From: Calditrichia bacterium
GTDB lineage: Bacteria; Calditrichota; Calditrichia; JAJRVZ01
Length of the DNA: 64,000 nt
Direction of reading: 5' to 3'
Assembly: GCA_963765585.1 (NCBI GenBank)
Contig: CAVXXB010000008.1
Coordinates: 405,111 to 469,110, forward strand
Shown: positions 3,334-63,600 of the stretch, piece by piece
Position numbering within the stretch: position 1 is the first letter of the stretch
Layout of the letters: the number at the start of each line of letters is the position of its first letter
Notes under the pieces: model-generated
Database searches by the model: none
What the model saw: the letters and a program-made list of their open reading frames with translations, nothing else
Told to the model about the DNA's origin: nothing
Position numbers and translations under genes: made by a program

Positions 3334-4098
3334 TCAAACACAGGCACTAAGCCCGCCATCGACAAAAAATGTCTGGCCGTTTACATAAGATGATGCCTGT
3401 GAAGCCAGGAAAATGGCTGCGCCAATCAGTTCCTCGGGATTCCCCCAGCGATCTGCCGGAACCCGTGAACATAACCAGGCATCAAATTCTTTATTTTCAT
3501 ACAGGGATTTTGTCATTTCTGTTTTAAAGTAACCGGGCGCAATGGCATTGATCTGGATATTGTGTTTCCCCCAATCGGTTGCCATTCCTTTTGTAAGTAA
3601 TTTAAGGCCACCCTTCGCCGCAGTATATGGTGCTATCGTGGGTCGGGCCAGTTCACTTTGTATGGAACAAATATTGATAATTTTGCCTGATTTTCGCTGT
3701 ATCATATCAGGAACAACGGTTTTGGCCGTTAGAAAGGCTCCTGTAAGATTGATATCTAAAATTCTCTGCCAATCTTCCAGTTTAAATTCTTCTAACGGTC
3801 CACGAATCTGAATACCAGCGTTATTAACAAGGATATCTATAGATCCGATATCGTTTTTGAGCTTCTCAATAGCTTTTAGAATACCTTTCTCATCCCGCAC
3901 ATCAAAAACAGAACCAAATGCTGAAATTCCTTCATCATTCAGGGTTTTAACGCTTTCGGATAATTGATTCTCATCAATATCGCTAAGGATCACCCGGCAT
4001 CCTGCCTGACCCAGGCCACGGGCGAGGGTTAATCCGATTCCCCGGCCGGAACCGGTGATTAAGGCGGTTTTGTCTTTTATGTTGAATAAGCTATTCAT
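3334..4098 (-). CDS. idnO: Short-chain dehydrogenase/reductase, gluconate 5-dehydrogenase (IdnO/Gno)-like
   Basis: 254 aa with the TGSGRGIG Rossmann motif. The blocks NICSIQSE...YTAAKGG...NAIAPGYFKTEMTK...WLCSRVPADRWGNPEELIGAAIFLAS match my recollection of E. coli IdnO, not KduD (which has APGYMATNNT). Confidence 0.8.
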   Translation of the reverse strand: MNSLFNIKDKTALITGSGRGIGLTLARGLGQAGCRVILSDIDENQLSESVKTLNDEGISAFGSVFDVRDEKGILKAIEKLKNDIGSIDILVNNAGIQIRGPLEEFKLEDWQRILDINLTGAFLTAKTVVPDMIQRKSGKIINICSIQSELARPTIAPYTAAKGGLKLLTKGMATDWGKHNIQINAIAPGYFKTEMTKSLYENKEFDAWLCSRVPADRWGNPEELIGAAIFLASQASSYVNGQTFFVDGGLSACV

Positions 4099-4156
4099 TG
4101 ATTTATTTCCTTTTGCGGGCTAAAGCCCGGTATTGTGGTGATTCATCAATCCCCCG

Positions 4157-5090
4157 GGATAAATCCCGGGGCTATTGATCATATTTATGAATCTATGCAA
4201 ATGTCATCCCGAATTTATTTCGGGAATATTCTGCTGGCTATCGGCTGTCTGCTCTCGGCCAACAGCCAACGGCAAACGATTTAGGATAAATCCCGGGGCC
4301 ATTGATCATATTTATCAATCTATGCAAATGTCATCCCGATTTTATTTCGGGAATATTCTGCTGGCTATCGGCTGTCTGCTCTCGGCCAACAGCCAACGGC
4401 AAACTGATTTAGGATAAATCCCGGGGCCATTGATCATTTTTATCAATCTATGCAAATGTCATCCCGAATTTATTTCGGGATCTATGTATCGGCTATCGGC
4501 CACCGGCAAACGATTAGGATAAATCCCGGGCTATGATCATATTTATCAATCTATGCAAATGTCATCCCGGAATATTCTGCTGGCTATCGGCTGTCTGCTC
4601 TCGGCCAACAGCCAACGGCAAACTGATTTAGGATAAATCCCGGGGCCATTGATCATATTTATCAATCTATGCAAATTTCATCCCGATTTTATTTCGGGAA
4701 TATTCTGCTGGCTATCGGCTGTCTGCTCTCGGCCAACAGCCAACGGCAAACTGATTTAGGATAAATCCCGGGGCCAGTGATCATATTTATCAATCTATGC
4801 AAATTTCATCCCGATTTTATTTCGGGAATATTCTGCTGGCTATCGGCTGTCTGCTCTCGGCCAACAGCCAACGGCAAACTGATTAAGGATAAATCCCGGG
4901 GCCATTGATCATATTTATCAATCTATGCAAATTTCATCCCGATTTTATTTCGGGAATATTCTGCTGGCTATCGGCTGTCTGCTCTCGGCCAACAGCCAAC
5001 GGCAAACTGATTTAGGATAAATCCCGGGGCCATTGATCATATTTATCAATCTATGTATCGGCTATCCGCTGTCGGCCATCGGCCAACGGA
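4157..5090. repeat. Tandem array of a ~127-128-bp unit, 6 near-identical copies plus 2 truncated/degenerate copies
   Basis: Unit starts (ggataaatcccgggg) fall at 4157, 4285, 4412, 4517, 4631, 4759, 4887 and 5015. The copy at 4412 is truncated and the copy at 4517 has a 12-bp deletion. Each unit carries the hairpin tcatcccgattttatttcgggaat. The last degenerate copy runs into the stop codon of the transporter gene at 5091. Confidence 0.95.
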
Positions 5091-6413
5091 TCAGCTCATC
5101 ATCTTTGTGACCATATCAATCACGGACAATGCCGATTCCCAGGCACCCCAGATGGCCAGGGCAAACAGAAAACCCATGATCAGGTTTTCCCATAATTTAT
5201 TTTTATATTCTGTTCCGATATAGCGACTGTTGGCTGTGATCCACCAAAGGCCACCTGCCAATGCAGGAATCAGCACAGCCATTAGTGTATTTGCAAGTAG
5301 TGTTAGTGTTACAAAATCTGCTTTTCCTGTCAGGATCCAGACGAATGGTGAAACCATTATCCATAGGGCGGTAATTTTGTATATTGGATACTTACGATAA
5401 TCCGGCGTTTTTGTTGTGCTTTTTGGATTTCTCCAGCGAAAAAATGCATGACTGGCCAGATATCCCAATCCCAAACCATTTCCAAGTAAAGAAGTAAATA
5501 CCGCACCGAACATGCCTAACAGAAATAATTTACGGCCACCCTCACCCAGGACCAGACCGAGCAACGCAGTTAAATCCTCTAAATTGCCAATATTTTTTCC
5601 AGATTCTCTGACCAGTTCGGCACCAAGTGTCCATACTGCCAGATTAAATATAATCAATGCCACGATGGCCAGAATAAAATCATAGGTCTGCAGTTTCCGG
5701 TATTTTGGTCCTTTCCACCCCTTCTGCTCTAAAAAATAAGGATATACCAGGTTTAACAGAGATCCACCGACCGCGCCGATCATGGCCATAGCCACAGCCA
5801 TTGCACCAAACGGACCCTGTTGTTCAGGAATATCAAATGCAATCGTTCCTTTTATAATACCTGTAATATTTGGCCCCACCCAGAGAGCCGATCCAACCAG
5901 CGAAATAGTCATCAGTACAATAAATATCTTAAATACCCATTCAGCACGATCGTAAAGAGGTCTGAAAACAACAAGCAATCCAATTATCACCCATACTATC
6001 CCCCACATCCAATCTGGACCAACTCCGGTTAATTTGGACATGGTCTCACCAATGCCGGCAATCATATAGGTTCCGTTTATATGACCAATAATGGCAATTA
6101 CAATCAATAGAAATGGCGCGTAGAATGGGTGCAGGCGAACAAGGCCATCCAAAAGGCCTTCATTGTGTATATTGCACATCTGATATTTGGCAATTGTGCT
6201 GACAAAAAAGAAGCGCATCAATAATGCCACTACCATTGCCCACATCAGTGCATAACCATAATTTGCACCGGAAACACCCGCGGACACAATATCACCGGAT
6301 CCGAGCCATGTTAACACAATGACAAATCCGGGACCGAATGAACGTACATATTCCCAAAAAGATGTTGGAATTTTTGGTGCGGCTTTATTTTCGATATTAT
6401 TATTTTCTGACAT
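5091..6413 (-). CDS. Nramp-family-related polytopic membrane transporter (divergent; canonical DPGN and MPH motifs absent)
   Basis: 440 aa with ~11 TM segments. GPGFVIVLTWLGSGDIVSAGVSGANYGY aligns to the MntH TM1 region GPG..DPGN..GY, with DPGN replaced by GSGD. Confidence 0.55.
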   Translation of the reverse strand: MSENNNIENKAAPKIPTSFWEYVRSFGPGFVIVLTWLGSGDIVSAGVSGANYGYALMWAMVVALLMRFFFVSTIAKYQMCNIHNEGLLDGLVRLHPFYAPFLLIVIAIIGHINGTYMIAGIGETMSKLTGVGPDWMWGIVWVIIGLLVVFRPLYDRAEWVFKIFIVLMTISLVGSALWVGPNITGIIKGTIAFDIPEQQGPFGAMAVAMAMIGAVGGSLLNLVYPYFLEQKGWKGPKYRKLQTYDFILAIVALIIFNLAVWTLGAELVRESGKNIGNLEDLTALLGLVLGEGGRKLFLLGMFGAVFTSLLGNGLGLGYLASHAFFRWRNPKSTTKTPDYRKYPIYKITALWIMVSPFVWILTGKADFVTLTLLANTLMAVLIPALAGGLWWITANSRYIGTEYKNKLWENLIMGFLFALAIWGAWESALSVIDMVTKMMS

Positions 6414-6567
6414 TTGTTTTCCTGACTGATACTTTTTTGACCAATAAGAAAAGTTAGAAGTTAGAGTTTATCATTGGCCACTCGCCTCTCGGCTCTCGCC
6501 CCAAGACATACAAAATGGAGCTGTATTCGAAACCAGTGCCGAGTACCAAGTTCCTAATTCCTAACTC

Positions 6568-7380: not shown

Positions 7381-7480
7381 GCAATGGTTTAATATTTAGA
7401 CAGAATGTCTAAAAATAAAATAAATCAAACCATAAGTCAACAAAAATAACTATATTTGGACGAATATTTACCTGATAATT

Positions 7481-10232: not shown

Positions 10233-10332
10233 ATATTTTATAAATAACTGCGAAATATTATTTATATATAGACAGCCTGTCTAAATATATGACATGTTTC
10301 CTAATAGTGCAAGGATTATATATCGATGTTAT

Positions 10333-12192: not shown

Positions 12193-12228
12193 ATCATAAA
12201 AAGAAGAGGAACGGTCTCAGACCGTTCC
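12193..12228 (-). terminator. Intrinsic terminator for the FG-GAP gene: perfect hairpin ggaacggtctcagaccgttcc followed by a T-run on the minus strand
   Basis: A 10-bp perfect stem lies 7 bp downstream of the stop at 12235. The minus strand reads hairpin then tcttcttttt. Confidence 0.7.
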
Positions 12229-12234
12229 CTACAA

Positions 12235-15072
12235 TTATTTAAAGCTAATTTTCACTTCGTTAAGTATAGGTGAATATGCGCCGTTATCGGTTGTAAAAAT
12301 GGCCTTGTATTGCAACCAGGTTGCATCAGACGGCAGATTGATAATTTTGCCCGGTTGGGTATAATACGTGTCCTTACCATCAGGCCCCATCCATTGGGCT
12401 TGATCCAACATTTCCACACTTTTTGCCGCACGTACCTGGAAATGTATTTTACTGCGATTTGGTGTTTCTGCCTGCCAGGCTATTTTTTCAGGAATTTTAC
12501 CTGCCAAATTATGAGCTGAAGATATATAACTGTATGCAAATTTTCTATTCTCAATATGTCCGATATCAATACCCACATCATAATGGACGCCCACACTGGG
12601 AATCTCATGGCGATTGTCTGCAGAAAAGCCCTTTTCGCTGCCCCAGTAAATAAGTGAATTAGTACTATGGTCACCAAATTTCCCAATCTCATCATAACTG
12701 CCATCATGACGATGACAAAAGAAAAACACATCCGTATATCCGTCCAGATTAAAATCACTTGCGATCGATCCCGTGGCACCATCCGTAGGTAATTTTATGC
12801 TATTTTCAAGCGAATATCCATCTTCACCTCCAAGCAGGATAGTTGAATGCCAGGATCTGCGGCCATTGCCTTTGTAAAAGGGGCATATTAAATCAAGCCA
12901 GTCATCTCCATTTACATCGGCGATGCACATTGTCTTGGCCATAACGCCGATTTTTGTGAGATGCTCCGGATCAAATGTGCCATCCGCATTCTGATAATAA
13001 ATCAACACATTTTTATCATGGGCAAAGACAATATCCAGGAGGCCATCTTTGTTCAAATCCGCCACTCCAGGCGTCCCGGCGCCATTGCTTTCAGAAATTC
13101 GGATTCGTTTATCTTCCTTGAATTCACGGGTACCGGTTCCATAATAGATGCTGGCATCACCCCATTTCCCCTGCTGACCAAATACGATATCCAGATGACC
13201 ATCCCGGTTGATATCGGCAATTGATGCAGCACGGGTCATCATTATTGGCAATGTTGTTCGATCTGTGATGGGCCAACCCTGCTCGCTGCCCCAATAAATA
13301 AACGAACCTGGAAGCGGATCCCCATTTTCTGATTTTTTTACAGGTGTGCCATTGGATATAAGCACATCCAGATAGCCATCACGATCCAGATCGGCCACTT
13401 CCACACCCAATCCGGAATATGACGGCAAACCACTCATTCGCCATGAATCAAAGTCATTATTCTGATTCCAATAGACAAACGCTTCATTGGCCAGCCGCGT
13501 AATTTCACCCCGGTTAAGTAATATGACATCCACCTGATTGTCATCGTCCAGATCGGCAAAAGCCTGTTCGTAGGATTCCCGACCCGGCAATTCGATCCGG
13601 TCATCGACATTATATTTTCCATTGGCATTTCCAAAATAGAGATAATTTGGATCATAGTCCCCGCGTGAATTTCCCATCATTGACGTAAAAACGATATCGA
13701 GATGTCCATCCCCATTCAGATCCGCAATCGCGTTACCCTGGGCTCCGTGCTCATAAAGAGGTGTGCGTTGGGTTTTAGTAAATCCATCGGGTGAATTCCA
13801 ATAGATAAATGATGGTACTTCATAAGAATAGTGTTCCTGGAAATTTGACACGACCAGGTCAACCCATCCATCGTTGTTCAGATCTGCCGCATTGGCGCCC
13901 CAGGCACCAATCGTCTGGATTGAAACACGATTTTCTTCCAGAAAGCCTTTTTCAGAACCATAATACAAATATGAATCAATTAAGCGATTCGCCAGCCTGG
14001 GATTCCCGGTAAGTGAATGCTGGTGATTGGTAAAGAACACATCCTGATGACCATCTTTATTAAAATCTGAGATTACGACATCTTTTGCCATATAGCTTGT
14101 AAATGATATAGACCTATCCGTCAAAAATCCGTCGGCACTATTTAAATATGCAAGTGATGTGGTTCCTTCCTGATTTGCAAAAACCACATCTTTTAAACCG
14201 TCACCATTAATATCATCGCAAGCGACTGCATGGGCCTTTTTTGTCGGTAATTTTGCCATTTCTTTTTCATCGAATCCGGATTCGGAGCCATAATAGATAT
14301 AAGATTCCGCCCCATCCCCATTGGCAAAAACCAGATCCGGCCAGTCATCGCCATTCAACTCATCGATCAAAACATCAGTGGCACCTACCGTCAGGACATT
14401 TGTAAATTTTTCCGGATCAAAGCCACTCTTTGCCCCCCAGTAAATCCTGCTGGGGGAAGAACCTTCACGATTTTTATCGCGATATTCCCAGAACCCGCCG
14501 GAGAATGCAAATACAATATCCTGAAAACCATCCTTGTTCAAATCGCCGATGGCTGCTTTTTGCGTATTGGATCCGGGAAGTTCAACACGCTCTGCAAAAG
14601 GATAAAAGCCCCATTTGTCAGGCGATGATTTAAAATCCGGATCTTTCAATCCACCGTAATATATAAAAGACGGCATCTCCGTCCAGGTGCCATTTGAATA
14701 ATTTGCTACAACTAAATCCTGATTACCATCCTGGTTCAGATCGCCAGGTGTCACCCACATGGGGCCGTTGGCCGGCACATAATTGTGATTCTTAATACTA
14801 AAATCTTTGCCGTTTCCCCAATAAATGGACAGATCAAGCATCTCGATCAGAGGATGCGAATTGGCACACAGGATATCGATATAGCCATCGTCATTGACGT
14901 CCCAGCGATTGATCATCTGTACCCGGCCGTTATGGGATACATACGTATTGGCGCCGGCATCATCAAACGTGCCGTCTGCAAAATCGGTAAATGTTTTTTC
15001 AATCCACACATCCTGGCTAAACAGTGATATACAACTGAATAGAAAGATTACCAATATCAAAAATGTTTTCAT
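12235..15072 (-). CDS. Secreted FG-GAP/VCBS repeat beta-propeller protein (945 aa)
   Basis: Signal peptide present. There are more than 10 repeats of D(L/I)NxDGxxD(I/L)V calcium-binding FG-GAP motifs. Confidence 0.7.
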   Translation of the reverse strand: MKTFLILVIFLFSCISLFSQDVWIEKTFTDFADGTFDDAGANTYVSHNGRVQMINRWDVNDDGYIDILCANSHPLIEMLDLSIYWGNGKDFSIKNHNYVPANGPMWVTPGDLNQDGNQDLVVANYSNGTWTEMPSFIYYGGLKDPDFKSSPDKWGFYPFAERVELPGSNTQKAAIGDLNKDGFQDIVFAFSGGFWEYRDKNREGSSPSRIYWGAKSGFDPEKFTNVLTVGATDVLIDELNGDDWPDLVFANGDGAESYIYYGSESGFDEKEMAKLPTKKAHAVACDDINGDGLKDVVFANQEGTTSLAYLNSADGFLTDRSISFTSYMAKDVVISDFNKDGHQDVFFTNHQHSLTGNPRLANRLIDSYLYYGSEKGFLEENRVSIQTIGAWGANAADLNNDGWVDLVVSNFQEHYSYEVPSFIYWNSPDGFTKTQRTPLYEHGAQGNAIADLNGDGHLDIVFTSMMGNSRGDYDPNYLYFGNANGKYNVDDRIELPGRESYEQAFADLDDDNQVDVILLNRGEITRLANEAFVYWNQNNDFDSWRMSGLPSYSGLGVEVADLDRDGYLDVLISNGTPVKKSENGDPLPGSFIYWGSEQGWPITDRTTLPIMMTRAASIADINRDGHLDIVFGQQGKWGDASIYYGTGTREFKEDKRIRISESNGAGTPGVADLNKDGLLDIVFAHDKNVLIYYQNADGTFDPEHLTKIGVMAKTMCIADVNGDDWLDLICPFYKGNGRRSWHSTILLGGEDGYSLENSIKLPTDGATGSIASDFNLDGYTDVFFFCHRHDGSYDEIGKFGDHSTNSLIYWGSEKGFSADNRHEIPSVGVHYDVGIDIGHIENRKFAYSYISSAHNLAGKIPEKIAWQAETPNRSKIHFQVRAAKSVEMLDQAQWMGPDGKDTYYTQPGKIINLPSDATWLQYKAIFTTDNGAYSPILNEVKISFK

Positions 15073-17678: not shown

Positions 17679-17698
17679 GGAACGGTCTGAGACCGTTC
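17679..17698 (-). terminator. Second copy of the hairpin ggaacggtctgagaccgttc, downstream of the Ldh_2 gene
   Basis: Same stem sequence as at 12208..12228. It lies ~60 nt downstream of the stop at 17759. Confidence 0.5.
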
Positions 17699-18774: not shown

Positions 18775-19052
18775 TGGATACAAGATACAGGATACAGTAT
18801 TCAGGATACAAGATGCTGGATGCTACTTTCATTGTCATCTCGAAGAGATCTTTCCGGATTGCTGGTGCCCTTTTCGACGGGAAGATTCCTTCGGAATGAC
18901 ATAAGAATTACTTAGTACCCTGGATATAGTATCCTGCATATTGCTTCGGCTATAAGGTCCTTTCAGGAAGACAATTCGGTGCCACCTCTATACTGAAGCC
19001 TGGCGCCTGAAACCTGGGGCCTGTATCTTGCATCCAGCATCCAGTATCTGCT
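18775..19052. repeat. MITE-like dispersed element, copy A
   Basis: The low-complexity arm caagatacaggatacag... at 18781 pairs with the inverted arm ...ctgtatcttgcatccagcatccagtatctg at 19021..19050. The core tgtcatctcgaagagatctttccggattgctggtgc...gaagattccttcggaatgacataagaatta is near-identical to 21796..21880. Confidence 0.8.
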
Positions 19053-20944: not shown

Positions 20945-21694
20945 ATGAATAACGATTTTATCTTTGAGTTTTTTGAAAAAATGCCCAGACAAGGCCCTGG
21001 ATCAGAAAAATATACGTTACAAGCATTGGAGAAAATCAAGCATAGATTGCCGGTTACCCCTAATATACTGGATATCGGGTGTGGCAATGGTACACAAACA
21101 TTTGATCTGTTACAGGCGCTTCCTTCGGCCAATATAACCGCAATTGATATTCACCCACCATTTCTTGACATGGTCAAAGAGAAATGTTGTAAGATACTAC
21201 AGCCCCCGGCAAAAGTTCATGCACAGGCAATGTCCATGGCAGAAATCGACTTTGATCCGGGCACATTTGATCTCATCTGGTCGGAGGGCGCGATATACAA
21301 TGTCGGTTTTGAAAGAGGAATACAACTTTGGCAGGATTTACTAAAACCCGATGGATATATGGTGGTATCCGAAGCCGTCTGGCTAAAACCGGATTTGCCT
21401 GCGCCGGTGAGAGATTTTTGGGAATCAGAATATCCCGAGATCGGCACTATCGCGGATAAATTTTCAATCATTGAAAAATCCGGCTTAGAAACAGTTCATC
21501 ATTTTACGCTTCCCAAATCAGTGTGGCAGGATGAGTTTTATGTTCCCATGCAGGAATTAATCAATCATTTTCGTAAATCGCAAAAGAGTAACGTGATGAA
21601 TGAATTCCTTGACGGCATGCAGATTGAGATAGATATGTTCAAATCTTACGGAGAGTATTATTCGTATGAATTTTTTGTGATGGGGAAAAGATAG
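20945..21694 (+). CDS. Class I SAM-dependent methyltransferase
   Basis: The glycine-rich SAM motif I (LDIGCGNGTQT) and an acidic motif II (AIDIHPP) are present. The ORF track starts at 20915, but that ATG lies inside the right TIR, so the ATG at 20945 (MNNDFIFEFF) is more likely. Confidence 0.75.
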   Translation: MNNDFIFEFFEKMPRQGPGSEKYTLQALEKIKHRLPVTPNILDIGCGNGTQTFDLLQALPSANITAIDIHPPFLDMVKEKCCKILQPPAKVHAQAMSMAEIDFDPGTFDLIWSEGAIYNVGFERGIQLWQDLLKPDGYMVVSEAVWLKPDLPAPVRDFWESEYPEIGTIADKFSIIEKSGLETVHHFTLPKSVWQDEFYVPMQELINHFRKSQKSNVMNEFLDGMQIEIDMFKSYGEYYSYEFFVMGKR

Positions 21695-21919
21695 ATGCTT
21701 GATACTGGATGCAGGATACAGGATTCAGGATGCTGGATACTGGATGCTTGATGATGTGAATTCGATAAAATCGCACTCTATGTCATTCTGCATTCTGCCT
21801 GCCCCTGTCATCTCGCAGAGATCCTCCCGGATTGCTGGTGCACAATGCGACGAGAAGATTCCTTCGGAATGACACAAGAATTAATCAGTAACTTATTCTC
21901 GTATCCAGTATCCAGAATC
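21695..21919. repeat. MITE-like dispersed element, copy B
   Basis: Arms gatgcttgatactggatgcaggatacagg... and ...gtatccagtatccagaatc flank the core tgtcatctcgcagagatcctcccggattgctggtgc...gaagattccttcggaatgacacaagaatta, which matches copy A at 18828..18910. Confidence 0.8.
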
Positions 21920-25623: not shown

Positions 25624-26096
25624 TAACGTCCTGTTCTAATAGTATTATGGCGTTAATCCGGCCTGCCGCGTTTCACACGGGTCATCCCCGTTCTATTTCT
25701 TTGATGTTGATATCCTATGATACTATTTATTATTATGCAATATTACTGGTAGACGAATATTATATTTCACCCCTAAAGGGGTTTTCAATGTTTTTGGGAA
25801 CTCCATTTACTACAAATATAGAACCGCTACGCGGTTCTTTGTATATCCTCGATATCATAGTCCCGTCAGGGATTATATATTTCTATCCATTTTTGATAGA
25901 GCATAGTAAAAATCCCTTAGAGTTAATATATTATAAGTAATTTGTAATTGGTAATTTTAATGAACCAATAGCCAACTCCAGGTTCTGAATAACCAATAAC
26001 CAATTCCAAGTTACAAGTTACGAGTTACAAATTCCTAATCCCTCATCTCTAATCTATTTCACCTGTGCATTTACATGAGAGACAATTTCCCCCTTA

Positions 26097-29627: not shown

Positions 29628-30011
29628 TACCGCATGAGATAAGAAATATTAGTAAGATGAAAAAATATGCCAGCCGAATAGCAGAATTATTATTAGAAAT
29701 ACATTTATAAAGATGGTTTATCATATACTCGTTTTCCCACCAACAAAATCAGTGATAATTTCTTTATACAAAAAGTCTGATAATTTACCAAAAAATAATA
29801 GAATAGTTTGAACCCTGAATTTAATCAGGGTCTCTCGCATAGACCCAAAGACCCGAGACAAGATGATTAGGTAAGTTAGAATGAGAAGTTAGAAATTGTA
29901 ATGGTAATTATTGCACATCGCCAATTACAAATTCTTAATTCCAAATCGTTTCATCTGCGCCTCTGCGACTCTGCGTGAAATAATTGTAAACAAATATGGA
30001 TGTTTACGCCC

Positions 30012-31652: not shown

Positions 31653-31959
31653 ATTTAAACTCCTGAGATCTAATTTGAATTGAGCCCCACTACCCTATTA
31701 TTAACTCACGCAGAGGCGCAGAGACGCTGAGAAAAAGAATATTGAATAGAAATTAGAGATTTGCGATTGGCAATATTTACAAATTACCAGTTCCTAATTC
31801 CGAGTTCCAAATTCTCCATTTTTGAGCAGGAGATTCTTCGTCCGCCAGACGGCGGACTCAGAATGACACCTAATATAATAACGAATTACCAATAGCAAAT
31901 TACTATCCTCATTTCTAACTTCTAACTATTTTTACTGCCTCTCTGCGAGTGAACATTGC

Positions 31960-38479: not shown

Positions 38480-38686
38480 AAATATTCTCGGTTAATTCAC
38501 ATTCAGAGAGAAAGGAAATTGGGAATTAGGACTTGGGAACTTGTGATTGTGCTTTGTTATTGATTATATTAAAAACAAATAAATATCACCCAGCACCAAT
38601 GCCAAATAACTAATTACAAGTTACTAATTCCCAGTTCCAAGTTTCAAATCTCTAATCTCTCATTCCTCATTTCTAATCTCTAACTT

Positions 38687-42255: not shown

Positions 42256-42441
42256 AATGCAAATCTGATCTATTCAGATATTTCTAAAGCAAAGTCGCAG
42301 AAAAAGATAGTTAGAAGTTTGGAACTGGGAATTGGGAATTAGTAATTTGTTATTGGTTATTAGTACATCTTTTTACTTCTAACTTCTAATTCCAATTCCT
42401 AATTTTCGTCTCTGCATCTTTGCGAGAGATAACCTATCCAT

Positions 42442-48722: not shown

Positions 48723-49821
48723 TTACAGGGCATTCAGTGCAAAGGCATACGCACCCAACGCAACTGCTTCACTTGTACCTATTTTGGATATTCCAACGCC
48801 CACACGGCTCATTGGATCATATAAAATCTTTTTCGAACTGCCTGGAACGGTAATCTCTTTTGATTCCCCTTTTATAAATAATTCCAGATCATCTTCATCT
48901 TCCAGATTAAACGTACGAACCGCTAAACGACGGTAAGTATCGCCACTAAAATTTCTATAACTGGCATTCATTTCTTCAATCATCTTTGGAAAAAACAGAG
49001 ATGCAGCACCGGCGACTCCACCTCCGATCACCCCAATTCCATCAATTAAAGTTAAAACGTTTGCGATTGCATCGCCGAGTACCTCTCCCATGCGGTTATA
49101 TGAACTGAGCGCAGCCTCTTTATTACCCTGAAGTTTTCCTGTGGCAATTTCATAAATCTCTTTCGGAGTTGGAACATCTTTAAAAGGAATTCCGACAATT
49201 TTGGCATATTCACGCTGAACTGCGCGAATACTCACACCCTCCTCCACATTCATTTCAGGATCCAATTTGTTTCGTAATAACCATACTTCTCCTGCTCCGG
49301 AATTATCACCAATAAATAATTTTCCATTTCGAACAATACCGGCACCAAATCCAGTCCCCAGGGTAAAGCCGACAAGATTATTAAATCTTTTGGGACTACC
49401 AGCATTTTCGAGCAATTGGTTAATATATGGAAGATATCCGGCAATAGCCTCGCCATAACCGTACAGATCGCCATCATTATTTATATAAACAGGTAATTTA
49501 AATTTTTCTTCGAGCATTGGCCCAAGTGCTATTCCACCGCGAAAACCAGGCAAGTTTCCGAGATTTCCGATTATACCGTTGGGATAATCAGCCGGTCCGG
49601 GAAAAGCAAAGACTGATAGCCACTGGTTTATCCGGCAATCGGCTCTCCAATTGTTCAAACCCATCGACAATTGTATTCAAACATCGTTCCAGATTATCTG
49701 CATTTGAGGGTAACGATATTGGTTCACTAATTTTTTGGCCACCTTGTATAGCAATAAATACAAAGTTTGTACCACCGGCATCCAATGTCATTACAGTTCT
49801 TTTATCATTTTTATAATCCAT
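48723..49821 (-). pseudogene. ROK-family sugar kinase (glucokinase/NagK-like) with a frameshift near 49590..49670
   Basis: The 77-aa ORF (MTLDAGGTNFVFIAIQ... ATP-binding N-terminus) and the 315-aa ORF (AFPGPADYPNGIIGNLGNLP...) overlap in different frames. Confidence 0.65.
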
Positions 49822-51134: not shown

Positions 51135-52488
51135 TTATCCTATTCCCAATTTTTTCTGTATGTGTTCGAGTGAAATGCCTTTTGTTTCAATCATAACATA
51201 TATTACCCAAAATAACTGTCCGATCATACAAAGAGCATAAAATGCGAATGTATGGCCGCCGGAGACTTCTGCAAATATTGGGAATGTCCATGAAATTAAT
51301 GCTGCCATTACCCAATGTGTAAAACTGCCAAGGGCTTGACCACGTGCACGAACCCGATTGGGGAAAATCTCACTAATGAATACCCAGATCACCGCTCCCT
51401 GCCCGAATGCATGTGAAGCTATAAATACAATCAGACTTACAAGAACAACTATACTTCCGGTATCCGTGAATTCAGTTCCAAAAGTATAAAAAGCCCAGGC
51501 AGGCTGAACTCAAACTTACTATATATCCAATGGATCCGACGACCATCAATTTTTTTCTGCCAAAATTGTCGATTAACAATAGCGCAAGCATCGTAAATAT
51601 TAAATTAGTGCCTCCAATAGCAACTGTTTGCAGTAAAGCCGATTCTGCGCCTGCTCCGGCCATCTTAAATATATGCGGAGCATAATACATTAAAGCATTT
51701 ATTCCGGACAATTGATTGAACATTGCGATAGATACGGCCAGAAGTATCGGTTTTATGTATTTTTTACAATAAAATGGTTCGTTTAACTGATGATGTTCTA
51801 AATCGAGTGACTTTTGAATTTCATTAACTTCTTCTCCAATACTGCCGGAATCAGTACCACAGTTTTCTAATACTATTTTAGCTTCGTCAACTCTGCCAAC
51901 CGCTATTAACCAGCGGGGACTCTTAGGATTTAAAATTAAGAGAAAGAAAAATATAAAAGCAGGAACTGCTTCAACTCCGAACATCCATCTCCATTCTATT
52001 GCACCTAAACTCAGGCCTGATATCACATAATTAGAAAAGAAAGCCAGGAGAATACCAAAGACAATATTGAATTGAGTGAGTGCAACCAGCCTGCCTCGAT
52101 ATTTAGCCGGAGATATTTCTGCTATATACATTGGAGAAACAACTGAGGCACCGCCTACACCCAAACCGCCAATCAATCTAAAAAATAAAAATGAATACCA
52201 ATCCCACGCAAGTGCAGTACCCAAGGCAGAAACAAAATAGAGTACTGCTAAAACATAAAGAATATTTTTTCTGCCATATTTATCTGTCGGCCTGCCAACA
52301 GTAATTGCCCCAATTATTGTCCCTATGAGAGCGCTGGCAACGGTAAACCCCAACCAAAAACTTGACAAATCGTATGTTTGTGCCAGCCAATGAGTGGTGC
52401 CAGAGATTACAGCCGTATCAAATCCAAAAAGCAATCCACCGAGTGAAGCAATTAGTGAATATAAAAAAACATTCTTTTGAGTTTTCAT
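51135..52488 (-). pseudogene. MFS sugar-porter-family transporter (XylE/AraE-like), interrupted between 51392 and 51472
   Basis: The 338-aa ORF has sugar-porter signatures (GRPTDKYGRKN, RLIGGLGVGGASVVSPMYIAEISPAKYRGR, GINALMYYAP). The separate 85-aa C-terminal piece has FPNRVRARGQALGS...IETKG. A ~79-bp gap lies out of frame between them. Confidence 0.65.
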
Positions 52489-61071: not shown

Positions 61072-63600
61072 TTATCGCAGCAGAATTAATTTTTTAGTTT
61101 CATTAAAACCAGAACATTGTAGTCTGTAAAAATATACACCGCTGTTTAGATCTGAAGCATCAAATTCTATTTTGTGATATCCGCTTACTTTGTATTCGTG
61201 CACTAATGTTGCAACTTCTTTGCCTAATACATCATAGACTTTCAACTGCACAAATTCACTATGTGGCATTGAATAACTTATTGTTGTCAACGGATTAAAC
61301 GGATTCGGATAATTATCATACAATTCATATTTGGAAGGTACATCTCCCATTTCCGTTTTATCAATACCGGTCATGCCATGTTCAATTTTAATATCATCAA
61401 TAAACCAGCCAAGATGAGTGTTCTCCCCATCTGAAATAAACCGGAACCTCAGCCGAAAATCAGCAGAGCCACTATAATCGTTTAAAGAAATATTTATCTG
61501 TTCCCATGTGATCGTCAGGCCGCTGAATCCTTCACCAATTCTTTCCCAAATGACGCCGCCGTCAACACTGATTTCTACAAAACCGGTGTCTCCCTCCATA
61601 ATACTTTTCCTCGACCAGAATGTGAATTGCGGATTAATGACAGATGTGAGATTAAAAGAATAGGTATATTCAGCATAACTATCCATATTATTTTCATAAC
61701 GGAGACCCGGATTAACAGCCAAACAAAACTCGCCATTATTAACTATCCGGCTATCTCGCCCCCAACCAGCGTGAGTAGTCCACTTCGTAAAATCAGTCTC
61801 AAAGTCATCCAATAAATTGGTAACGTTAAAACTTGATTTGAGCGAATCTGAAGATTTATCCTGATCATTGGATAGATTTGTAATAAAGACAATGTCATAA
61901 TTTGCGCTACTTGATGCATTCCAGTTATCAAAAGTTACTGTTTCCATCTCGAAAGTACCTATGTTGTCAATCGTTTTAATGTTAGAATAGACTATCTCAC
62001 CTTCGGATCTAATTTCGCAAGAAATTGGGACATTAAGCTCTTCGTTTTCACCAATATTCCATACGATTAACTCGGGCGAATGGTTAGTCGTGAAAGCAGG
62101 GATGTTTTCAAATTTAGATGTCTGTTTAAATGCGAGCAAATTATGCTCAAGTTTTTCAACGGATGTTATTTCTACAGTAGTAGTACTATTTGCCTTAAGA
62201 TCAATACTCACATCAACAACATGCACTGCATCACCATCAAAAGCCTGCATTATTATTCCGTTTCGATTAATATATTCCTTTCCTTTTGGCAGGATAAAAC
62301 GTACCCTGGCGCTTTCAATGGGAAAATTGAATTTATTAATAATGGTTGCCCTATTATATGCCTTTGTTCCGTTATTTTCGTCGGAATAATCTCAATTTAA
62401 GTTTACAGGTATTATAATTCATGTCGGTCTCAAGCCCTGCATGACCGGAATATGAATTTCCTACCGTTTCAAAGGTACCCTTAATATTATCAATTTTATA
62501 CAAGTTAAACGGAGCACCGTTAATGCCATTCTGGACACCGGCTGCTGTATAAATTATAGGTTTTCCGTCAATGGAATAAGGATTAGTAGTATAGCGGTGA
62601 ATATGTCCGCCCAGCAGTAATCCAAAAGGTGCGCCTACATTCTTAAATGCATTATACAAGGGAGGGACACTTTCCTGGGGGACATGAAAAAAACCGATCC
62701 TTAAATTGCCTTTTCCTACACTGTCAATCCAGTCTTGTGGCTGCATCAAGTTGCCATTGATAATTTGCTACATAACCCGGATCACCACCCCCGGTAGAAG
62801 GGCACCAGGAGTTAGTTATCCCAACAAAACGTGTGTTGCCATAGGTGAAATTCTGGCATGTAAGTCCAAAATATTCATTCCAAGCCCGTGCCGGAGTGGC
62901 CAGGTCCGGCTCGTTGTAATAGTTATGTGTAGGCGTATCATGATTGCCCGGAATCGCAAAATATGCTGTATTTAGGTTATTCAACCCGTTTATAGTTCCT
63001 GTACCATTTATGAATTCATCTAATCTAGCTAAATTTGTACTACTATTGCTACTTTGCCAGTAACAATCTCCTGTTTCAATAAACATTTCAGGCGCTATAA
63101 TATTGGCAATATCAATCACGCTCGATTGTTCAGGGTAGATAATACCCGGGGTATCTTTACTGGCCTCCCATCTATGCGGATCTGAAAAGTGCATAATATA
63201 GTAGCTGCTTTTATACTCCTTAATCACCTTTACCGCTGCTAAAGATATTTCATCGCCAGTGGCAATTTTCAAAATCAGATTATACCGGTCGGCCGGTGCG
63301 TCTTCAGGTACTTGTACGTTAATTTTGCGATTGTAAGTGTTCCCCGACCACTTGTCGTATATCCAGTTACCATTTTCAACACTAAAGGAAGTACTAACAC
63401 TATTATACGGCCCTTGTAACTCTACCGAATCGATGATTTGCCCATCATCGGCATCAAACCATACCTCAAAGTTTTCTCCAGATTTTACAATTGCGGTTGT
63501 AGCCCGCCAGGGATAAATAATCTTTCCACACCATCCGGTGCTATAGAAGCTGAAAAGTTAAGAATAAGATTAAAAATAATGACGTATTGCTGCTTTTCAT
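61072..63600 (-). pseudogene. Secreted calcineurin-like metallophosphoesterase with a T9SS (Por) C-terminal sorting domain, read through 3-4 frameshifts
   Basis: Signal peptide MKSSNTSLFLILFLTFQLL* (63600..63541) ends in TAG. The next piece is out of frame (62724..63272, containing IPGNHD). Then comes 62372..62749 (GHIHRY). After that, 61072..62392 extends 5' of the annotated ATG (...NGTKAYNRATIINKFNFPIESARVRFILPKGKEY...) and ends in a T9SS CTD (VYFYRLQCSGFNETKKLILLR). One junction lies in a C5 run (caccacccccggt). Confidence 0.55.

Follow-up and report, generated by a model that had tools for sequence, protein, structure and literature searches.

The tandem array and its flanking genes

The DNA analysed here is a stretch of 64,000 nt from contig CAVXXB010000008.1 of a Calditrichia bacterium, called the window in the following. 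Close to one end of it, two co-directional genes coding for an Nramp-family transporter and an SDR-family oxidoreductase are separated by 992 bp (open reading frames (ORFs) 5091-6413(-) and 3334-4098(-)), and this spacer harbours a tandem array of a ~128-bp unit. The strand of the array is given as minus, that is the sense strand of both flanking genes. The array was delimited by Tandem Repeats Finder (TRF), repeat finding, unit alignment and covariance-model matches, and the locus comprises the following features.

3334..4098, minus strand: downstream gene, SDR-family oxidoreductase; nearest models gluconate 5-dehydrogenase (IdnO) and KduD, both below their cut-offs
4116..4129, minus strand: hairpin CGGGCtttaGCCCG, a short way upstream of the ribosome-binding site of SDR; only spacer element with conservation in the related locus L001
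4152..4171, minus strand: hairpin CCCCGGGAT-tt-ATCCCGGGG in complete form, at the array edge facing the SDR gene; found as inverted repeats
4157..5090, minus strand: whole tandem array, ~7.5 copies
4157..4284, minus strand: U1, SDR-proximal full unit of 128 bp with ~9 differences from U5; carries the promoter-like site nearest to the SDR gene
4285..4411, minus strand: U2, full unit with 1 difference from U5
4412..4516, minus strand: U3, variant unit of 105 bp with a short 'type B' heptad tail common to U8
4517..4630, minus strand: U4, 114 bp, with a 12-bp deletion removing the CCCGA…TCGGG hairpin and a 2-bp deletion
4631..5014, minus strand: U5-U7, three full units of 128 bp, each with an ATGAAA variant of the -35-like hexamer
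5015..5090, minus strand: U8, partial unit of 76 bp adjoining the Nramp stop codon (alignment; covariance model, 59 bits)
5091..6413, minus strand: upstream gene, Nramp-family transporter, its stop codon adjoining the array

The array consists of eight head-to-tail units, seven of them complete or variant and one partial, is non-coding and contains no spacers. TRF reported a period of 127/128 across 4157-5055 in three overlapping rows, with 96-98% matches in the clean parts, and a direct-repeat search returned seven in-register copies at spacings of 127/128/219/128/128/128. An initial annotation of this DNA had placed about 7.5 copies of a ~128-bp unit at 4157-5090, on which TRF, repeat search and alignment agree; its unit starts (4157, 4284/4285, 4412, 4517, 4631, 4759, 4887 and 5015) were likewise reproduced by the unit listing and the alignment. 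U2 measures 127 bp as cut; counting the shared G at 4284 brings it to 128 bp. Three sub-patterns of the unit (21-32 nt, up to 3 mismatches) each gave 6-7 matches inside the array and none in shuffled sequences.

Full-length copies of 127/128 bp number five (U1, U2, U5, U6 and U7; identity 95-100%), and not six near-identical ones as counted initially. U5 and U7 are 100% identical, and U6 deviates by 2 differences. The copy at 4412 (U3), which had been described as merely 3'-truncated, instead has a different and shorter tail, reading …GGCCGATAGCCGATACATAGAT on the minus strand, that is also present in the terminal partial copy 5015-5090. In U3, copies of the 7-bp direct repeat CATAGAT stand on both sides of a small hairpin module. 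Between those repeats, U8 is devoid of this module; U8 lacks a 41-nt block containing the hairpin and the -35-like hexamer. Such an arrangement would fit either the insertion of a small element or a deletion between direct repeats. The 12-bp internal deletion noticed initially in the copy at 4517 (U4) was found again, and the last copy ends, as annotated, at the transporter stop codon, its final base being 5090, next to that codon.

With 44.6% GC, the array had been considered GC-richer than its surroundings. This is so relative to other intergenic DNA of the window (34.0%), but the two flanking genes have 42.9-43.5%; the array is GC-rich for intergenic DNA and only slightly above the genes next to it.

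As an alternative explanation, the assembler might have inflated a spacer that exists in one copy. Three genes of the window are apparently split by frameshifts, those for an MFS sugar transporter, a ROK-family kinase and a phosphoesterase-like protein (51135-51392 + 51472-52488; 48723-49670 + 49588-49821; 62372-62749 + 62724-63272), which suggests either indel errors as typical of long-read assemblies or pseudogenes. Single-base length differences between units thus have to be read with possible assembly indels in mind. Yet the array is not made of identical copies: an assembler loop would not give rise to two structural variants (U3, U4), one partial copy and single-nucleotide polymorphisms (SNPs) in ordered patterns, and 934 bp are well within the length of long reads. 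We therefore regard an assembly artefact as hardly credible.

Search for further copies of the unit

Outside the array, none of the three sub-patterns (up to 3 mismatches) occurs in the 64-kb window. Searches with the unit by blastn-short and nhmmer gave nothing in 36 related loci and the array-masked window, and a covariance model of the sense-strand structure (R1) matched only the array in the window plus 21 related loci (424 kb in total). Exact scans for a 24-nt core of the unit had no match in the collections genome_contigs and metagenome_contigs, and a blastn search of plasmids and phages in distant mode yielded nothing meaningful. A degenerate hairpin-plus-ATGAnATTTGCA pattern was absent from viral contigs and had one unrelated metagenome match, in contig L036, which bears one small hairpin element, TGTCATCCCGAACTTGTTTCGGGATCTC.

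Only one part of the unit, a module of roughly 25 nt, belongs to a loosely dispersed class. In the array it reads GTCA-TCCCGA…TCGGGA-AT on the plus strand, or 'hairpin + ATGAC' on the minus strand. The array module and its dispersed counterparts are located as follows.

4203..4225, plus strand: 'GTCAT + hairpin' module (GTCA-TCCCGAAtttatTTCGGGA) in U1, recurring in U2, U3 and U5-U7
15191, 18900, 21873, 23730, 31867, 43420 and 58858, minus strand: dispersed GTCAT-hairpin modules
36964, plus strand: dispersed GTCAT-hairpin module

The pattern has 32 matches in the window as compared to 17 +/- 4 in shuffles. About 8-10 of the dispersed modules are convincing; they are intergenic, their hairpin sequences differ, and they share only GTCAT and the general shape with the array module. 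The initial annotation had the same module occurring singly in many other intergenic regions. This holds for a loose class of elements, but not for the hairpin sequence and mostly not for the orientation, as most dispersed modules read GTCAT on the minus strand, opposite to the array copies. As a side observation, the GTCAT head of these small elements is conserved and the hairpin behind it varies (GTCAT[TC]C[CT]GA…), and some are paired as inverted ends (21807/21873). The same architecture is seen in the unrelated metagenome contig L036 (76-99 and 174-202), and the class therefore crosses lineages.

A further component of the unit is a heptad-like hairpin (GCCGTTG GCTGTTG GCCGAGA GCAGACA GCCGATA GCC), which resembles heptad-built palindromes filling many other intergenic regions of the window. 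The unit is thus assembled from kinds of small elements that are common in this genome, but the amplified entity is the 128-bp composite.

REPs (repetitive extragenic palindromes) within bacterial interspersed mosaic elements (BIMEs) alternate in orientation, with defined linker motifs between them. The initial annotation had proposed a BIME-like cluster arising by amplification of a genome-wide REP-like element. Tandem amplification was borne out, while the unit proved to be confined to the array in the window, the related loci and the collections scanned, and its copies to be arranged head-to-tail. In its more general form, this explanation would see a mosaic cluster, akin to BIMEs or to neisserial intergenic mosaic elements (NIMEs), of a genome-wide REP-type palindrome, possibly mobilised by a RAYT-type (REP-associated tyrosine) transposase. 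The enrichment of the GTCAT-hairpin class in the window and its presence in an unrelated contig would agree with such an origin, as would the CATAGAT-bracketed module that is missing from U8 exactly between the repeats, the richness of this genome in intergenic hairpin elements, and the REP-like palindrome described for Caldithrix abyssi (PMC5317091). However, what is repeated is the 128-bp composite rather than the hairpin, neither the unit nor its sub-patterns were detected outside the array in 64 kb (up to 3 mismatches) or by profile and covariance-model searches, and the dispersed hairpins have little in common beyond GTCAT and shape. All array copies have one orientation and a fixed spacing, whereas BIMEs alternate the orientation of their REPs (PMC3184786). 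We consider a mosaic cluster of this kind quite unlikely. Sequence comparisons rather point to a recent, lineage-specific amplification of a local spacer.

Coding potential and known element classes

No ORF in the array exceeds 80 aa, minus-strand ORFs reach at most 42 aa, and the period of 128 is not a multiple of 3. The 80-aa ORF at 4175-4417(+), dismissed in the initial annotation as generated by the repeat, indeed looks spurious: it belongs to no NCBIfam family and there is no word-sharing protein among 5.8 billion protein clusters. Translational coupling as proposed for mycobacterial interspersed repetitive units (MIRUs) was rejected, as no array ORF links the Nramp stop to the SDR start.

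ARAGORN predicted no tRNA or tmRNA, although the predicted fold of the unit resembles a cloverleaf. The whole window is devoid of Rfam matches at gathering score; an E-value scan of 3900-5300 gave ES003 as the best sub-threshold match (21.5 bits versus a gathering score of 37, E ~0.2), which is chance level only.

CRISPR arrays consist of 23-50 nt repeats separated by unique spacers of similar length, with associated cas genes. The array shares with them regularly spaced direct repeats containing a small palindrome, but here the period equals the repeat length. Since the entire 128-bp period is repeated without unique segments, and no cas genes are found among the seven neighbouring genes (TonB-dependent receptor, SDR, Nramp, IclR, FAA hydrolase, transketolase and beta-helix protein), a CRISPR array was rejected, in line with the initial annotation. 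A MITE, or miniature transposable element with inverted repeats, was discarded as well: the unit ends pair over 6 bp only (TAAATC/GATTTA), this pairing is made by the unit junction, and there are no dispersed copies. Integron attC sites, iterons and parS sites were likewise dropped on inspection of the sequence, which shows neither cassettes nor replication or partition genes and does not match a consensus.

RNA structure and variation among units

Folding of one unit, proposed initially as a check, favours the sense strand. In the computed structure, a stem closes off three hairpins; its energy is -41.8 kcal/mol (z = -3.9), compared to -34.8 kcal/mol (z = -2.3) for the opposite strand, a difference that stems partly from G-U pairs in the heptad hairpin. 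No other intergenic region of the window is as structured as the Nramp-SDR spacer (-0.36 kcal/mol per nt; z = -10.6).

Among the array copies we found no compensatory base pair changes. SNPs disrupt stems in U1, U4 and U6, U4 has lost a hairpin and U5-U7 have a weakened -35 hexamer; variants thus affect every module without compensation. Selection on the units is not visible. The central copies are identical and the peripheral ones diverged, a pattern that homogenisation by unequal exchange would produce.

Promoter-like sites and transcription

Each of the first seven units contains a sigma70-like site on the sense strand, identified by sequence match.

4178..4207, minus strand: sigma70-like site ATGACA-18-TATGAT (10/12) in U1
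4305-4334, 4433-4462, 4536-4565, 4652-4681, 4780-4809 and 4908-4937, minus strand: equivalent sites

The score is 10/12 in U1, U2 and U4, and 9/12 in U3 (ATGACA-18-AATGAT) and U5-U7 (ATGAAA-18-TATGAT). A hairpin followed by ATGACA, annotated initially for each unit, was encountered in U1-U3, but U5-U7 have ATGAAA instead, U4 has lost the hairpin and U8 lacks the motif altogether. In U1, the end of the -10 element is followed after 6 nt by the conserved leader hairpin and after 79 nt by the SDR start; in L001, a TATTAT is located 9 nt upstream of the equivalent CCCCGGG leader hairpin. Canonical -35/-10 promoters precede other genes in the window. The array lies upstream of the idnO-like SDR gene, in whose leader the initial annotation had considered a repeated structured RNA, and a role as leader or promoter is plausible.

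Terminator-like sites were not detected on either strand in 3900-5300, neither after Nramp nor within the units; canonical terminators are present elsewhere in the window. Because of this, and because Nramp and SDR are only 43 bp apart in the related locus L004, read-through from Nramp is likely.

Promoter-like sites and a stable fold raise the question if the array could be a set of tandem small-RNA (sRNA) or structured-RNA genes comparable to NsiR1, each unit comprising its own promoter and a four-way-junction RNA of ~100-130 nt. Besides the sigma70-like site in each of seven units, the sense-strand fold (z = -3.9) with its closing stem, three hairpins and G-U pairs valid only on this strand would be in keeping with this proposal, and identical centres with diverged edges are also described for nsiR1, of which 12 copies stand in tandem upstream of hetF (PMC9045159). 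On the other hand, there is no terminator-like hairpin plus T-run on either strand in spite of canonical terminators in the window, no Rfam family, and no homologue in relatives or any collection scanned; variants break stems and delete a hairpin without compensatory changes, and the promoter match is of marginal significance. We thus take an sRNA array to be unlikely, and with it an action of the unit RNA in trans, or in cis on the SDR leader. By analogy with NsiR1, one may also envisage a recently born Calditrichota locus whose units are independently transcribed structured RNAs or form a tandem multi-promoter module, and which would control the sugar-acid SDR gene or its uncoupling from Nramp. 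This proposal, including the control function, appears unlikely to us as well.

Candidate binding sites

The units could alternatively serve as protein-binding sites (operator, titration or centromere-like), with TTGATCAtatttATCAA or CCCGGG palindromes recurring every 128 bp. A clean inverted repeat of 5-6 bp with a 7-nt centre is found in each unit, and a gene for an IclR/KdgR-like regulator lies two genes upstream. However, the palindrome is broken in U1, U4 and U6, partition or replication genes are not found nearby, and the promoter-adjacent operator-like palindrome of this gene cluster (TAGACAnnnTGTCTA) is different and absent from the units, which also led us to reject an array of IclR operators. 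A binding-site array is in our view very improbable. The palindrome TAGACAnnnTGTCTA itself occurs at 7397-7411 and 10269-10283, in each case just downstream of a sigma70-like promoter (TTGACT-17-TATTTT and TTGCAC-17-TATATT), in front of the FAA-hydrolase plus transketolase genes and of the IclR/KdgR-like regulator gene. It is a likely binding site of the IclR/KdgR-like regulator.

Related loci

The gene order beta-helix protein, transketolase, (FAA hydrolase), IclR, Nramp, SDR and TonB-dependent receptor is kept in L001/L002 and L004, the latter being devoid of the FAA hydrolase gene and having a gene for an IS1595-family transposase between SDR and receptor. Nramp identity to the window amounts to 91% for L001/L002, 90% for L003, 80% for L004 and 78% for L005, an uncultured Calditrichota bacterium; a 'Calditrichia bacterium' Nramp cluster is at 77%. 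Although the adjacency of Nramp and SDR is preserved in relatives with 78-91% Nramp identity, their spacers are unrelated. In L001/L002 the spacer comprises 224 bp of unrelated sequence without an array, in L004 it is 43 bp long, and in L005 it consists of ~225 bp of different hairpin elements. For L003, the 104 bp downstream of Nramp are also unrelated to the array. Comparison with related genomes, another check proposed initially, hence revealed the array to be absent from the Nramp-SDR spacers of L001/L002, L004 and L005.

Between the window and the L001 spacer, positional conservation is restricted to the last 75-85 nt before the SDR start, a stretch comprising two hairpins (CCCCGGG… and CGGGCtttaGCCCG) together with the ribosome-binding site. 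Since the relatives have unrelated spacers and lack the unit, the array is a recent, lineage-specific gain.

A tandem repeat of another kind was noticed in L012, a metagenome-assembled genome (MAG) of the Terriglobia: an unrelated 377-bp repeat of 2.9 copies at 12348-13440, ~1 kb downstream of the Nramp homologue.

Proposed origin of the array

Taken together, we favour the interpretation, with a probability of roughly 60%, that the array is a lineage-specific non-coding minisatellite within a conserved cluster (IclR regulator, Nramp, SDR and TonB-dependent receptor). The array is real, but probably an ordinary bacterial minisatellite.

The most likely mode of formation is a local tandem duplication of the Nramp-SDR spacer including the promoter-like region of the SDR gene. 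Every unit terminates with the 5' half of the CCCCGGGAT-tt-ATCCCGGGG hairpin, which places the duplication breakpoint inside the hairpin 4152-4171. U8 looks like the unexpanded ancestral spacer: joined to the SDR-proximal flank (4099-4171), it reconstructs a plausible spacer in single copy, of ~130 bp and ending in the complete 4152-4171 hairpin. The ancestral Nramp-SDR spacer would accordingly have had ~130 bp, still visible as 5015-5090 joined to 4099-4171. Two hairpins, one built of heptad repeats and one reading ATTGAT…ATCAAT, would already have been part of it, together with the promoter of SDR and the initial bases of its leader. The spacer may next have gained the small 'GTCAT-hairpin' module. 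Illegitimate recombination, one of its breakpoints falling within the CCCCGGGATTTATCCCGGGG hairpin, could then have duplicated it once, followed by unequal crossing-over or replication slippage, which would have expanded and homogenised the array to ~7.5 copies.

As a consequence, as many as seven copies of the SDR gene's promoter-like region (ATGACA/ATGAAA-18-TATGAT) would stand in tandem ahead of that gene, and read-through transcripts from Nramp or from an upstream unit would carry a ~0.9-kb string of stable hairpin modules. These modules could, like REP/BIME hairpins, uncouple or modulate the expression of the Nramp and SDR genes. Any such effect would be putative and at most cis-acting; our default reading is a neutral or weakly cis-acting repeat of variable copy number.

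Several points weigh against the minisatellite interpretation or narrow its base. The array is carried by one genome only, no further genome of this species having been found and the closest Nramp homologue (91%) being without it, and this single case has to serve for copy-number variation, conservation and selection alike. Uniqueness of the unit within the source genome refers to the 64-kb window, so that dispersed copies may exist beyond it. The strand bias in folding energy derives from a single sequence family, and the origin of the hairpin from heptad repeats could account for it. As to the promoter-like match, it is statistically weak, with a chance rate of 0.03-0.08 per 128 nt (3-8% of segments), and the three youngest copies carry the poorer -35 hexamer (ATGAAA).

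If only slippage and unequal exchange were at work, the practical value of the array would be that of a marker for strain typing or assembly quality in an uncultured Calditrichota lineage. Were the seven promoter-like copies active, the array would represent a natural case in which amplified promoters tune a single gene of a cluster for sugar-acid utilisation. Current concepts would not be changed in either case; the array illustrates the amplification, within a conserved operon, of a spacer that holds a promoter and small hairpin elements.

Comparison with known repeat systems

The closest kind of element is the bacterial intergenic minisatellite or variable-number tandem repeat (VNTR): minisatellites are head-to-tail repeats of a unit of ~10-150 bp without spacers, and TRF gave a period of 127/128 and ~7.5 copies here. 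Among VNTR loci with units of ~50-130 bp, the MIRU-VNTRs of Mycobacterium tuberculosis (Supply et al., cited in PMC3184786) are the best-known intra-operon example. MIRUs form one family over ~40 loci, often with short ORFs overlapping the neighbouring stop and start codons. Like these, the array consists of a head-to-tail, non-coding unit of ~100 bp between co-directional genes of an operon-like cluster, with near-identical copies, occasional internal deletions and presumed slippage or unequal recombination. In contrast to MIRUs, there is one known locus (in the 64-kb window and the related loci scanned) and no coupling ORF.

The BIMEs of E. coli and NIMEs of Neisseria are mosaic clusters of REP and dRS3 hairpins, respectively, with hundreds of component copies genome-wide; they are intergenic, often intra-operonic, and can stabilise the upstream mRNA (PMC3184786). 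The array resembles them in its GC-rich hairpins mixed with short motifs, and the conserved 5' head (GTCAT) of its module has a parallel in REPs. It differs in being a 128-bp composite, with all eight units and their hairpins in one orientation, that was otherwise absent in our scans.

NsiR1 of Nostoc sp. PCC 7120 is encoded by a tandem sRNA array of 12 copies upstream of hetF, whose units have demonstrated promoters (DIF1 motif), terminators and discrete transcripts of ~60 nt, and are conserved across heterocystous cyanobacteria (PMC9045159). Direct repeats immediately upstream of a gene, an identical centre with diverged edges and a promoter-like sequence per unit are common to both, whereas the array in the window, known from sequence alone, has neither terminators nor conservation.

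BrickBuilt of Porphyromonas gingivalis is a minisatellite within a MITE; its unit measures 23 nt, its leader and tail subunits have ends made of inverted repeats, and a genome contains 19 copies (PMC4596501). Here, the similarity lies in a spacer-less intergenic tandem repeat of an FCB-group (Fibrobacteres-Chlorobi-Bacteroidetes) bacterium with promoter elements inside the repeat; BrickBuilt has promoter activity. Its counterpart in the window has a 128-nt unit, no terminal inverted repeats delimiting the array, and a single locus.

Other features of the window

Many intergenic regions of the window contain long imperfect palindromes of heptad-like repeats, for example GGAATTA / GAAGTTA arms facing TAATTCC / TAACTTC.

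6414-6567, 25624-26096, 29628-30011, 31653-31959, 38480-38686 and 42256-42441: heptad-built palindromes
18776-18814 and 21694-21753: period-7 TRF rows

They often begin directly after a stop codon, and some finish in a T-run, like oversized terminators. To our knowledge, there is no named family of such heptad-built intergenic palindromes; similar elements are present in the relative L005. In addition, a 17-nt palindrome, AACGGTCT(G/C)AGACCGTT, occurs in two copies (12210-12226 and 17681-17697), each just downstream of a gene end. It recalls, without being identical to, the REP-like aAACCGTTgaAACGGTTt motif of Caldithrix abyssi (PMC5317091). Finally, of 41 ORFs with 150 aa or more over 1-64000, 39 are encoded on the minus strand, an unusually strong co-orientation.

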